IMG/VR virus record: IMGVR_UViG_3300047403_000032
Coordinates: 1-35,112 of that record
Reading direction: 5' to 3' (one strand)
Source: a virus
Taxonomy: Duplodnaviria; Caudoviricetes
Length of the DNA stretch: 35,112 bases
The translations under genes and the position numbers were made by a program. The notes beneath the pieces were generated by a model. It was not told the DNA's origin and did not search any database. It saw nothing but the letters and a program-made list of their open reading frames with translations. Below, in pieces: positions 3,353 through 35,112 of the stretch (within the stretch, counting starts at the first letter, position 1; the number at the start of each line of letters is the position of its first letter).

Positions 3353-3554
3353 CATTACATTGTCTCCCGAGTGGCAAGCCGAGCAGATGGACCGCCTTCT
3401 CGGATTTGAGATTTTGACCAGAGCCTTGACGGCCCGCTACCACCCCATTCCTCCAGAGCTTCTGGCGGACAAGGTGGGGGCCAACAAGGGACTTACCAAT
3501 TCCATCATCGTCAAAATCCAGCGCAACCTGAATGAAAAGCAACGACCAGATTGA
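3333..3554 (+). CDS. hypothetical protein
   Basis: Fills the gap before the portal and overlaps both neighbours; start uncertain (3333 or 3387). Confidence 0.5.
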   Translation: MRRSESDITLSPEWQAEQMDRLLGFEILTRALTARYHPIPPELLADKVGANKGLTNSIIVKIQRNLNEKQRPD

Positions 3555-5607
3555 GTCCCTGACATTTGTGCAGGGAAAGCCTGATGTGCCCGCGCTGAAG
3601 AACGCCTACGACCGCACCATCGGGGACCTCGACTGGTATTTGCAGAGCACCCGCGATTCGTTCGACTATCGCCGCAACATCTGGCCGGGAAAGTCGAAGG
3701 ACCTTCGCAAGCATGGCGCTGACGCCTTCCCGTTTGAAGGGGCTTCGGATACGGAGGTGGGGTTGATTGACGAGCGCATCAACACCTACGTCTCGTTATG
3801 CATTGAGGCGATGGAACGGGCCAACATCCGTGCCTATCCGGTGGAGATTGGAGATATGTCGCGTGCCCGCGTCACGTCCGCCTTCCTGAAGTGGATGAAG
3901 GCGTCCTACATCAAGGACTTCAGGCGTCAGATGGAGCTGGGCTGCAACTACCTGTTTGAGCGCGGCATCATGGTGACATACGTTGGCTGGCGCAAGGAGG
4001 ACCGCACCTTCCTTCAGAAGCTCGACTTGCAGCAGATTGCCCAGATTAGTCCAGACTTGGCTCGTCTGATTCAGGACGGGAAGGTGGACGAGCAGATTGC
4101 CGAACTCCTGAAGCAGCAGTTTAAGGGCGTTACGGATGCCCGTGCGAAGAAGGCCATCAAGCAGCTCCGAAAGGAGGGCATGGCCGAACTACCTGTGGTT
4201 AGGCAATCGGTGAACGCGCCGAACGTATGTTCACTGGCTCCGGATGGCGACGTATTCTTCCCTGCCTACACCACAGATTATCAAAAGGCTCCCTATTGCT
4301 TCTGGCGCGTCCTGATGACGGCTCAGGAGTTGAAGAACAAGGTGAGCACGGAGGGTTGGGATGAGGAGTGGGTGGATGAAATCATCAGCCGTTACGCCAC
4401 GTCCATCAACCTTTCCGACCCACGCACCAACACCGAGACGGCCCGCATGCCGTCCGAACAGACGGAGGAGCTGTTTGAGATAGTGTATGCCTATCAGCGG
4501 CTCATTTCACCCGAGGACAACTCCGAGGGCATCTACTGCACAGTGTTCCATCCGACGTTTTACGGCACCACGGATGATCCGCGCTACGCCAAGCATGAGC
4601 TTTTGAACGGGTATGATGACTATCCGTTCGTTGTCACCAAGCTGAGCGAGGACAACAAGCGCCTGTACGAGCTGGCCACGGTGCCAGAGCAGCTTCGCGG
4701 GTTGCAGTGGGGAGTGAAGGCCGAGCGTGATAGCCGCACCGACCGCAATAGCATGGCCACGCTGCCTCCCATCATGCACCCCGTTGGGCTTCCGCCCACG
4801 GATTGGGGTCCAGGTGCCCGTGTCCCCTATCGCCGCCCCGGCGAGATTCAGTTTGGCCCTGTTCCACCGTACAACCCCGGCTCAGTGGAGCTGGAACGGA
4901 CGATGATGGATCAGGCCGACCGCATCATGGGATTGGATCATAACAACCCCATGTCGCGTATTCGTCAGCAGCACTACGTTGACAAGTTCTTGGGCCACGT
5001 TCGTGACGTGCTGAAGCTGTCTTTCAAGTGCTATCAGCGTTTTGGCCCTGAGCAGGTGTTCTTCCGTGTCACGGGAACGTCCGATCCCATCCGCTACGAC
5101 CGTGGAGACCCGAATGAGGACTTCGACATCAGCATCAGCTTTGATGTCCTCAACACCGATCCTGAAACCCTAGAAGCCCAGCTTCAGCGGTTTGTCAGCC
5201 TCGTCCAGCTCGACCGCAACGGCAGGATGAACATGGACATGCTGCTTGAGGCCTTGGCTGTTTCAGTGAATCCTGCATTGGCTGATGCTGTTTTGCAGCC
5301 CGCTGGTGAGGCGCAGCAGCAGATTGTGAAGCAGGTGACGGACGACCTGTCGAAGATTTACGCTGGTATCGAGGTGGGTGCGCGGCCCAACGGTGCTCAG
5401 ATTGCATTGCAGGTGATGCAACAGTATGCCCAACAGCCTGACGTGATGCAGCGCTTGCAGCAGGACGAGGCCTTCAAGGCGCGCATTGAGAAGTACGCCC
5501 AGCAGTATCAGTTCCAGATGCAACAGGCCCAGAACGCCCAGATTGGGCGTCTAGGCACTGCTCCTGCCCAAATGGGGCAGGTGAACACTCAGGCCATGAT
5601 GACCTGA
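3532..5607 (+). CDS. portal protein
   Basis: 691 aa downstream of terL; features typical of P22/podovirus-like portals (DAFPFEGASD, GIMVTYVGW, YPFVV, Q-rich C-terminal region). Confidence 0.88.
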   Translation: MKSNDQIESLTFVQGKPDVPALKNAYDRTIGDLDWYLQSTRDSFDYRRNIWPGKSKDLRKHGADAFPFEGASDTEVGLIDERINTYVSLCIEAMERANIRAYPVEIGDMSRARVTSAFLKWMKASYIKDFRRQMELGCNYLFERGIMVTYVGWRKEDRTFLQKLDLQQIAQISPDLARLIQDGKVDEQIAELLKQQFKGVTDARAKKAIKQLRKEGMAELPVVRQSVNAPNVCSLAPDGDVFFPAYTTDYQKAPYCFWRVLMTAQELKNKVSTEGWDEEWVDEIISRYATSINLSDPRTNTETARMPSEQTEELFEIVYAYQRLISPEDNSEGIYCTVFHPTFYGTTDDPRYAKHELLNGYDDYPFVVTKLSEDNKRLYELATVPEQLRGLQWGVKAERDSRTDRNSMATLPPIMHPVGLPPTDWGPGARVPYRRPGEIQFGPVPPYNPGSVELERTMMDQADRIMGLDHNNPMSRIRQQHYVDKFLGHVRDVLKLSFKCYQRFGPEQVFFRVTGTSDPIRYDRGDPNEDFDISISFDVLNTDPETLEAQLQRFVSLVQLDRNGRMNMDMLLEALAVSVNPALADAVLQPAGEAQQQIVKQVTDDLSKIYAGIEVGARPNGAQIALQVMQQYAQQPDVMQRLQQDEAFKARIEKYAQQYQFQMQQAQNAQIGRLGTAPAQMGQVNTQAMMT

Positions 5608-33346: not shown

Positions 33347-33967
33347 TCAGAACGGACCTGAGGAAGTGTCCTCGTCCGGTGCGGCTGTCAAGGCCTCAGT
33401 GATGTTTCCACCAGAGCGTGCCTTGTATTCCTCCGAGGAAACAATCTTCGCACCAATCCACTCGGGGATGCCCTGCGGGATGGTGATGGCACCCTCATCC
33501 GGAATCGTCCAATGGATGGTGTCAGCGGACGGCTTCAAGGGCTGCATCCCCTTCACCAGAGGAACAACACCTTGGATGCGGGCATACACCTTGGACGGGT
33601 CAGCCTTGCCCTGCTTGTGCACGATGTTGAGCTGGCAATTCGCCCCGATGATGTTCTTCAGGTCGAAGCCGTTGAGCTCCTCATTCGTGAAGGGCTTGCC
33701 CCGCCAGCTCTCAAGGACGGCACGGAGCGTGGCCTTCTTGCCAATGCTGGCCGTGTATTCCGAAGAGATGACACGCGGCTTGGGGCCTTCTCCCGTGTTG
33801 ATGGTTTCATGGGGCAGTTCCCAAAGAATCATCACCTTCCGCGAGGGGCGGAACGTGGGATTGCCGGGGTCCTGCGTGCCAATGTCAATGACGGCATAAC
33901 AAACGGCATGGTGGACACCAGCCGGTACGGGATCACTCTGTTTGCTTGAACCAGCGTTTACTTTCAT
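33347..33967 (-). CDS. SSB-like / phage replication protein
   Basis: AVCYAVIDIGTQ...LRAVLESWRG...IIGANCQL OB-like core; acidic tail ending PF. Confidence 0.7.
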   Translation of the reverse strand: MKVNAGSSKQSDPVPAGVHHAVCYAVIDIGTQDPGNPTFRPSRKVMILWELPHETINTGEGPKPRVISSEYTASIGKKATLRAVLESWRGKPFTNEELNGFDLKNIIGANCQLNIVHKQGKADPSKVYARIQGVVPLVKGMQPLKPSADTIHWTIPDEGAITIPQGIPEWIGAKIVSSEEYKARSGGNITEALTAAPDEDTSSGPF

Positions 33968-34013: not shown

Positions 34014-34295
34014 TTAGTTGTTCTCGGCCTTCATCATGGCCATCGCTTGCTTGGTGGCCTTCTGTGCCGAGTTGAATGAGTCCATCCAACGCTTGGCCTT
34101 GTCCACCACTTCCTGCTGTTCAGCGCAAGTGGGTTGTTCAAAACGGGAGAGGAATCCCTCGATGATGCTGCTTGCCGCAACAAGACAGCTTCTCACTCCC
34201 GTCACCATTTCAAGAGGCATAGCAACGTATGCCTCGCATGACTCAAACTCAGCTTTCCTAGTGTTGTCTTTCATACGGGACGGAGCTTGGCTCAT
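34014..34295 (-). CDS. hypothetical protein
   Basis: 93-aa helical ORF; start uncertain. Confidence 0.55.
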   Translation of the reverse strand: MSQAPSRMKDNTRKAEFESCEAYVAMPLEMVTGVRSCLVAASSIIEGFLSRFEQPTCAEQQEVVDKAKRWMDSFNSAQKATKQAMAMMKAENN

Positions 34296-34335
34296 TCAGG
34301 CTCCGCTTGCAAGATTTATTTTCAGATTTCTTTTG

Positions 34336-34632
34336 GCCCTCATTCCAAGACGCTGGTGATGATGCAGGAACACGGGGGCACAGTTCACCCATTGCTGGGT
34401 GAAGCTGCTTTCCAAACGCTGTCTGATGAGAGGCGAGGTAGCCGGTAAGCACTGCCGCCACGCTGGTAGGCCATTGCCCGTGGTTGTTCGGCATCGTTCA
34501 CTCCCGAAGGAGCGCACATTAAGGAAGGCTGGTGTTTGTCGTCAGGCCTTCCGCCAGAATGAGCAATCACCCCCTTGCACAGGTGGGTGCCGCTCTCCGT
34601 GCGCTATGTACCAGCCAAGCACGGCAATGGCC
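34336..34632 (-). ncRNA. candidate large structured non-coding RNA
   Basis: Long-range stem, 7-bp pseudoknot, and C(UUCG)G and GCAA tetraloop hairpins reading on the - strand; no convincing ORF. Confidence 0.55.
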
Positions 34633-34645
34633 TTTGCTTGCAATT

Positions 34646-34852
34646 CTACAGGGCCTTATGCCTTGGGAGCACCATCTTCACCACATCGTATGGGAACACC
34701 CTCAAATGGGCTGCAATGGCCTGTTCCGCTGTCCTTGCATTGGACCAATAGTAGCCCTCACAGGGCATGCGTGGTCCGTTCTTCTGCTTCCTGAAAATCC
34801 TGTTGCCGCTGATGAGGCGACCCATCCAATGCACTTGGAAGTTGTGGTTCAT
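34646..34852 (-). CDS. hypothetical basic protein
   Basis: 68 aa, ATG start. Confidence 0.5.
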   Translation of the reverse strand: MNHNFQVHWMGRLISGNRIFRKQKNGPRMPCEGYYWSNARTAEQAIAAHLRVFPYDVVKMVLPRHKAL

Positions 34853-34886
34853 GACCCCACCGAAGCCCCGTGCTGCCCCTTGTCAA

Positions 34887-34929
34887 GCAGAAAGCCCTCC
34901 CCCGAGAGTTCCCAGAGGAGGGCTTCTGC
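34887..34929 (-). terminator. strong hairpin / possible terminator or attenuator
   Basis: GCAGAAGCCCTCC...GGAGGGCTTTCTGC on the - strand; weak U tract. Confidence 0.5.
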
Positions 34930-34984
34930 GCCGAGGGGACACATCCTCGGACAGGTATGAACACGACAACAACAGACAGCGCGA

Positions 34985-35011
34985 ATGTTATCACGGCTTG
35001 GGGTTTGTCAA
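34985..35011 (-). promoter_or_regulatory. putative early promoter
   Basis: TTGACA-N15-TAACAT with a TG extension; the spacer is short. Confidence 0.4.
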
Positions 35012-35100
35012 GCGGGTGTTTGGAAAAAAATACCCGTGCCCTCGGCTGAGTGTGGGACGTTGCCTGTCTCGGCTTGGGGTGTGACGATGGCGGCTTGGGG
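34994..35100. repeat. CGGCTTGGGG decamer repeats
   Basis: Exact copies at 34994, 35070 and 35091; degenerate CGGCTGAGTG at 35043. Confidence 0.7.
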
Positions 35101-35112
35101 TGAGACGTTGGG

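Follow-up and report, generated by a model that had tools for sequence, protein, structure and literature searches.

A conserved structured element, probably a noncoding RNA, beside the replication genes of one Caudoviricetes phage clade

Comparison with described RNA families

Noncoding RNAs as large and complex as the element described here are rare in bacteria and phages, and several of them have proved to be ribozymes or RNA-only assemblies. In the accessible portions of two papers (PMC5737381, PMC12286853), ROOL RNAs average 581 nt and many GOLLD RNAs exceed 800 nt. The element resembles both in being phage-borne, multi-helix, optional and located in tRNA-carrying regions (accessible portions of PMC5737381 and PMC12286853), whereas it reaches only about half to a third of their length and occurs in one phage clade only. 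ARRPOF, GEBRO, PAGEV and raiA are similar to it in size (223-349 nt for the plasmid motifs) and in the complexity of their fold, and the plasmid motifs adjoin replication regions, as the element also lies near replication genes (accessible portion of PMC5737381). In contrast to these four, the element is carried by a phage, not by a plasmid or chromosome, and has no Rfam match. As far as the accessible text of PMC5737381, PMC12286853, PMC12990946 and bioRxiv 10.64898/2026.07.01.735769 goes, ROOL and GOLLD are its nearest counterparts in kind and ARRPOF its nearest in size, but the element belongs to none of these families.

The element was found in the 35,112-nt Caudoviricetes record IMGVR_UViG_3300047403_000032 (95% complete), the whole of which is called the window below. 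It measures about 280-300 nt:

34332..34633, minus strand: whole conserved element (covariance-model match), with a core at about 34597-34350

A comparison with Rfam, proposed in the original prediction, gave 0 matches for the window at gathering thresholds (Rfam 15); at E values up to 10 the best score was 19.4 bits, far below gathering and at chance level. The same search of 12 homolog loci detected tRNAs only, and ARAGORN found 0 tRNA or tmRNA genes in the window. Among the GOLLD, ROOL and MISL motifs named at the outset, membership of GOLLD or ROOL was rejected, as the span of about 300 nt lies below their 580 to >800 nt and no Rfam match exists; for MISL there was no match among 4227 Rfam models, whose inclusion of MISL is unconfirmed. 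Short words of the element may resemble tRNA 3' ends, group I R/S/Q elements, TPP, SAM-I and FMN riboswitches and 23S rRNA, with no Rfam support for any of these.

Two further kinds of RNA invite comparison. CsrB/RsmZ-type sponges and phage decoys such as pseudo-ToxI repeat a short motif in several loops, and so does the element. Its motif is ACCA(G), however, not the GGA of CsrB/RsmZ, and the three copies stand in unlike structural settings; it has no tandem repeats, and the partner protein of a decoy would be only putative. The P1 c4 and P4 CI antisense RNAs and the HK022 put RNA are phage early-region RNAs that follow early promoters. The element shares with them a conserved bulge in a hairpin and the placement after early promoters, but is much larger and has no Rfam match.

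The literature found contains no prior description of the element, although a fragment may be listed in the supplements of PMC10690425, a paper that, in its accessible portion, reports 10,006 viral RNA candidates (8,495 from IMG/VR, 29-151 nt); the searched part of its supplement files holds no match for six motifs or six contig ids. The element is a new family of structured phage noncoding RNA, and ornate phage noncoding RNAs of unknown function are already a known kind.

Distribution and genomic setting

A first search with a 17-nt pattern returned 23 viral loci, four of them chance matches, and the homolog set was extended by further patterns and a metagenome scan (39 loci). A profile search over 506 loci gave 136 matches above 25 bits, many of which duplicate a contig already in the set, and 38 distinct versions of the element including the window's own, all from one phage clade. 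Thirty-five full-length versions, window included, were aligned, leaving out three truncated ones; the mean column identity is 76% and about four lineages can be distinguished.

Among 37 loci collected via the neighbouring SSB-like protein, the element lies beside the gene in 24 of 25 assessable close relatives (67-81% identity) and in none of 11 distant loci; one locus begins inside the gene, and presence of the element was not judged there. The exception, L326/L003, is a close relative with a 73% identical SSB-like gene, whose record is 64% complete but includes the syntenic slot. The covariance model likewise found the L003 record to be without the element, and one copy per genome in three long relatives. 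Since it is absent from L003 and from all distant loci, the element is clade-limited and optional. Run over 39 other sources, the covariance model gave no full match, and the weak matches there are seed-pattern loci, which match by construction. A fifth pattern led to three new contigs, all chance matches; one further pattern over 15 of 64 parts of the collection gave no new member, and a genome-contig scan with a loose pattern over 1 of 64 parts gave no true match. By its capsid protein the nearest named phage is C75C1 (57%), for which no host is recorded.

Terminase, portal, major head and virion genes occupy the plus strand of the window, and the minus strand encodes a DnaB helicase, a PD-(D/E)XK exonuclease and a 206-aa phrog_862 protein. 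The element, on the minus strand close to the right end, is flanked by a 68-aa ORF on its 5' side and a small conserved ORF on its 3' side. The latter precedes the SSB-like gene, and the element heads the SSB-like/exonuclease/DnaB block. In the direction of transcription, the neighbouring features are:

34886..35011, minus strand: a small-RNA unit distinct from the element, comprising a promoter, a GU-rich 5' part, a hairpin and a terminator
34646..34852, minus strand: 68-aa ORF with a promoter-like TTGACA of its own (34886-34881)
34643..34648, minus strand: TAGAAT, a -10-like hexamer that shares bases with the stop codon of the 68-aa ORF, with no -35 box seen
34284..34325, minus strand: putative promoter-like block of the downstream gene, 3' of the element
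34014..34274, minus strand: small conserved downstream ORF, likely start at 34274, apparently leaderless
33347..33967, minus strand: SSB-like protein of 206 aa, phrog_862 (PHROG match)

The phrog_862 protein would be SSB-like judging by its position and an acidic tail that ends in Phe; its structure model is poor (pLDDT 46) and gave no fold match. No PHROG, Pfam or Atlas match was obtained for the small downstream ORF. The upstream neighbour of the element varies by lineage, and the 68-aa ORF is confined to the lineages of the window and L001.

Several minor features of this region were observed. The small-RNA unit is conserved in 11/11 aligned loci, including L003, which lacks the element. 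In most relatives it begins with GCCAG, complementary to the invariant CUGGC of the element; in the window a 12-nt stretch of the unit pairs with 34428-34417 of the element instead. Its 5' part looks complementary to CA-rich phage gene starts in relatives (e.g. the downstream ORF of L010), and no target of this part was found in the window. Early genes with apparently leaderless starts (34274 and 34852 in the window, and homologs) carry -10-like hexamers 6-9 nt before the ATG, which may hint at the host group. An inverted repeat at 34281-34305 overlaps the spacer of the downstream promoter-like block and is a possible operator.

The slot also takes up other RNA genes. L002 has a tRNA-Asp in the region of the element and L003 a tRNA-Thr(UGU) (4642-4714, plus strand), which directly follows its SSB-like gene. 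As L002 carries both, mutual exclusion of the element and tRNA genes was ruled out. Where the element would stand, L003 carries another kind of unit made of a promoter and hairpins (3470-3550, plus strand). A second optional stem-rich unit follows a TAGAAT hexamer in L001 (3378-3505, plus strand) and L002 (3706-3830, plus strand), in the latter directly upstream of the tRNA-Asp; its stems differ between the two yet still pair, it has no Rfam match, and it is absent from the window.

Secondary structure of the element

The original prediction was of a pseudoknotted fold in which an outer helix (34632-34616 with 34486-34469) is followed by a 7-bp pseudoknot (34615-34609 with 34468-34462), with further helices nested inside and a second, 3' domain. 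All of the complementarities it listed are present in the window, among them an 11-nt perfect inverted repeat (34623-34633 / 34468-34478). Across the 35 versions, however, the outer helix is paired in 57.7% of cells, the pseudoknot in 54.9%, the GCGCAC/GUGCGC helix in 42.9% and the closing helix of the 3' domain in 54.3%. Together these four are paired in 53.9%, compared with 54.3% when shuffled, and 418 of 500 shuffles reach the observed value. The 5' arms concerned are:

34609..34632, minus strand: 5' arms of the first proposed fold; only in this genome do they complement 34486-34462

The first 10 nt of these arms occur in 3/35 versions and the pseudoknot arm in 1/35, the window alone, differing even in its two closest relatives L483 and L484. 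On geometric grounds the 17-bp and 7-bp helices, joined by zero-length linkers, could not both form fully. The 35 aligned versions gave no sign of selection for this arm pairing, which could be an alternative fold in the window's lineage; this is conceivable because folding the window or L484 as a single sequence gives it as the minimum-energy structure.

The inner helices at 34595-34561 and 34552-34523, the hairpin 34513-34500 and the GCAA hairpin 34403-34384 were all confirmed. They belong to a revised core of seven helices (P1, P2, P3, P5/P6, P7, P9), in which P5/P6 replaces the outer helix. These helices and the other parts of the element are:

34597..34624, minus strand: P0, a lineage-limited 5' hairpin recognised by inspection, CCGUGC/GCACGG here and CCGUCC/GGACGG in the L001 lineage
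34561..34595, minus strand: P1, a long irregular, G-U rich hairpin with an invariant CCU/AGG cap; 10/14 pairs changed on both sides
34552..34557, minus strand: linker CUGGCG, invariant in the alignment
34523..34552, minus strand: P2, 94% paired, 4/7 pairs changed on both sides; the loop holds ACCA site 1 (34533-34530)
34500..34513, minus strand: P3 hairpin, from covariation analysis, with a UUCG loop here
34458..34483, minus strand: P5/P6 hairpin with the 6-nt bulge UACCAG; ACCA site 2 at 34467-34464
34404..34452, minus strand: P7 arm, a short covarying stem around the nearly invariant 34446-34417
34384..34403, minus strand: P9 hairpin with an invariant GCAA (GNRA) tetraloop; closing pair A-U in 32/35 and G-C in 3/35
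34342..34376, minus strand: 3' conserved segment with ACCA site 3 (34357-34354)

In this core 89.4% of cells are paired and double changes occur at 17 of the 44 pairs, values that 0 of 500 shuffles reach, and controls with slid helices are 41-54% paired. Both the 89.4% and the 17 pairs overstate the support: the alignment used was adjusted to this very structure, its sequences share ancestry, and, with the versions falling into about four lineages, cells overcount independent events. RNAalifold, applied to an unfitted MAFFT alignment of 18 sequences, recovered 8 double-change pairs, in P2, P5 and P9. P2 changes within lineages as well as between them, two adjacent pairs of P5/P6 change on both sides in 13/35 versions, and one pair of P7 is U-A in 18 and C-G in 9, with the register misaligned in two lineages. 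Covariation is thus present for the revised core and absent for the scheme of outer helix and pseudoknot. The folding check on shuffled sequences also came out in favour of structure: 34330-34640 on the minus strand has z = -2.44 (1/100 shuffles as stable), the core 34345-34600 has z = -1.83 on the minus strand versus -0.92 on the plus strand, and three homologs have z = -2.44, -1.43 and -2.04. The element is very probably a real conserved structured element.

Of the two tetraloops that had been read on the minus strand, GCAA is invariant (35/35), whereas UUCG is found in only 13/35 versions; the P3 loop elsewhere is UUUG (19/35) or, once each, CUUG, UUAG and UUUU. ACCA is invariant at all three sites (35/35), of which the first is in a hairpin loop, the second in a 6-nt bulge and the third in a 3' loop, and the neighbouring stems vary. 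A G follows ACCA throughout, except at site 1, where A stands in 12/35. The supported helices are predicted to leave the three sites unpaired.

Long-range pairings are candidates only, since the partner sequences are invariant. They comprise CUGG with CCGG or CCAG, an 8-bp pairing of 34505-34498 with 34436-34428 that competes with P3 and is intact in 99.6%, GCCG with either neighbour, and a 3-bp helix closing the second junction. For the CUGGCG linker, candidate partners are one CCAG, CCGG, or the GCC at 34492-34490, and several mutually exclusive pairings, some pseudoknotted, are possible for the stretch 34446-34417. Pseudoknots are therefore plausible, but not the one first proposed. Evidence for a hairpin that closes the 3' segment is weak, and its register differs between lineages. 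Two homolog folds favour one junction around P2/P3 and a second around P7/P9, and the strands after P3 and after P9 resemble each other, which suggests that the fold contains a pair of similar junction modules, both with hairpin-GAAC-UGC at their end. The versions in L483, L479 and L478 resemble recombinants between lineages, e.g. a window-type 5' half joined to an L010-type 3' half; this suggests that halves of the element are interchangeable.

No reading frame is conserved across the homologs. Starting from the same ATG, translation would pass through the invariant GCAA hairpin in a different frame in the window, in L006 and in L001/L019, and indels of 1, 2 and 4 nt separate aligned versions. 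The overlapping ORFs have no PHROG matches and are broken by frame-breaking changes among homologs, in agreement with the earlier view that they are not proteins. Protein coding, including a short ORF through P1-P2, was rejected because frames and starts are not kept. Covariation and the lack of coding back the original interpretation as a large structured phage noncoding RNA.

Strand, transcription and possible roles

In P1, a G-U is kept at one pair in 34/35 versions and at the neighbouring pair in 24/35. These pairs would be A-C mismatches on the plus strand, which points to the minus strand. G-T pairs are poorly tolerated in DNA. The many G-U pairs and the invariant GNRA loop lead us to favour an element that works as RNA, not as ssDNA. 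A single-stranded DNA structure acting as a primase or helicase loading signal seems highly improbable: folding with DNA parameters is modestly better than for shuffles (z = -1.89), and comparative methods cannot reliably separate ssDNA from RNA (accessible portion of PMC5737381), but the G-U pairs kept in P1 speak against it.

TAGAAT at 34643-34648 is a possible promoter of the element, and TAGAAT or TAAGAT stands in the same place in L484 and L002. Two lineages have the element directly after the terminator of the small-RNA unit, preceded by a TAGGGT-like hexamer such as these phages employ as a -10 box; the other two have it after the 68-aa ORF and the TAGAAT/TAAGAT hexamer. As neither arrangement shows a clear -35 box, read-through is equally possible. 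The downstream block consists of an A-tract, TTGCAA (34312-34307), a 17-nt spacer and a weak -10, and is aligned at the same place in 10/10 sequences; the spacer from the element to the downstream gene varies in sequence and length. A consensus promoter scan of the window picked up none of these putative promoters. No terminator follows the element in the window, and it may thus be read through into the downstream genes. The element is covered by contigs of two aquatic RNA libraries, both from a single study (299 nt with 12 differences and 302 nt with 9). Similarly shallow coverage is scattered over the whole genome, and the contigs may thus stem from DNA carry-over; parts lacking coverage carry no weight.

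The missing terminator would suit a cis-acting leader of the early replication operon, riboswitch-like or put-like, that switches folds and changes elongation, read-through or processing of the downstream genes. In every locus examined the element precedes the same two genes, P3 and its 8-bp competitor are mutually exclusive, and the window and L311-L325 have a terminator behind the SSB-like gene. This terminator is lacking in nine carriers (L327-L335), however, so that a strict link between element and terminator was rejected; the downstream gene has its own promoter-like block, no conserved expression platform (terminator or SD-blocking hairpin) was seen, and L003 retains the genes without the element. 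We consider a cis-acting leader unlikely.

The downstream promoter-like block and the close relative without the element argue instead for an accessory, trans-acting noncoding RNA, which is probably what occupies this slot alongside other small RNA genes. A role in trans is also favoured because no conserved ACCA targets were found and because relatives carry tRNA genes and a further stem-rich unit in this region. Conserved complementary targets were sought in the flanks and, for site 2, in five relative genomes, with none found, and a c4/CI-type antisense RNA was rejected on this ground. The complement of ACCAG occurs 34 times genome-wide versus 11.7 expected; antisense targets or a Chi-like role for it were rejected, as a control heptamer (21 versus 11.6) is enriched too, probably through codons.

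Our preferred reading, held tentatively and at somewhat less than even confidence, is an early accessory RNA that acts as a decoy for a host RNA-binding protein or nuclease. The RNA would be transcribed early, driven either by the upstream promoters or by a -10-like hexamer immediately before P1, and would act in trans; the three ACCA(G) motifs, predicted to be held unpaired, could serve as repeated binding sites and might titrate the host protein. Repeated loop motifs as protein sites are the pattern of CsrB/RsmZ. Against a decoy counts that the ACCAG motifs could pair internally with the invariant CUGG, as RNAalifold does for site 3, and that A replaces the G after site 1 in 12/35 versions. 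If true, the decoy would give phages an additional RNA-based route to handle host defence; if not, the element would remain a fresh example on which the function of ornate phage RNAs can be studied. Only about 280 nt long, with natural compensatory variants and a relative that lacks it, the element is open to direct in vitro probing and imaging.

The same invariant motifs might instead serve a protein-free RNA that self-assembles like ARRPOF, ROOL and GOLLD, with ACCAG, CUGG, the palindromic CCGG and GCAA contacts building dimers or larger particles. ARRPOF, with 255 nt, dimerises via kissing loops (accessible portion of PMC12990946), and ROOL and GOLLD often lie, like the element, where tRNA genes are also taken up (accessible portion of PMC12286853). 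Long invariant stretches with several short complementary partners and the invariant GNRA loop would fit such contacts; being all invariant, however, none of them covaries, no high abundance is evident in the two RNA libraries (whose contigs cannot rank expression), and Rfam shows no match to the three families. Self-assembly is therefore quite unlikely in our judgement. Less credible still is a protein-free, maybe self-assembling counter-defence RNA whose three CCA sites mimic tRNA 3' ends and decoy tRNA-end enzymes or toxins, or a ribozyme that releases such ends.

The position at the head of the SSB-like/exonuclease/DnaB block would suit the origin or primer RNA proposed earlier, a replication primer like ColE1 RNA II or ARRPOF whose R-loop would let DnaB load. 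Of 34 proteins compared with PHROGs and 23 with Pfam, none was recognisable as a primase, polymerase or initiator; these sets do not include every small ORF, and an initiator may have escaped recognition. For motifs of 223-349 nt, a connection with the replication of plasmids has been described (accessible portion of PMC5737381). The location near replication genes stands, but the idea is weakened by the relative that has the same neighbouring genes, the 73% identical SSB-like gene among them, and the syntenic slot without the element, which argues against a required role in replication; the element also contains no iterons, AT-rich unwinding region or long G-run. We regard a primer function as very unlikely.

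A ribozyme of an undescribed class that would cleave or process the early transcript is similarly doubtful. Many invariant junction nucleotides and the two similar junction modules would fit a compact tertiary core, but no Rfam family matches even at E up to 10, and the element is larger than the known self-cleaving classes. The hammerhead consensus has an invariant CUGANGA, then stem II and GAAA, in a three-way junction. A hammerhead was rejected, as the similar heptamer of the element (34545-34539) lies in the P2 hairpin loop, varies in two lineages, has no matching architecture around it and no Rfam match.

Two minor observations concern the window at large. An octamer that we take to be the E. 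coli Chi sequence occurs 8 times versus 2.1 expected, with 7 copies on the plus strand, probably a codon effect. Imperfect direct repeats of 21 nt, four copies in all, occupy 34994-35111 at the record's right end and may be operators or terminal repeats.
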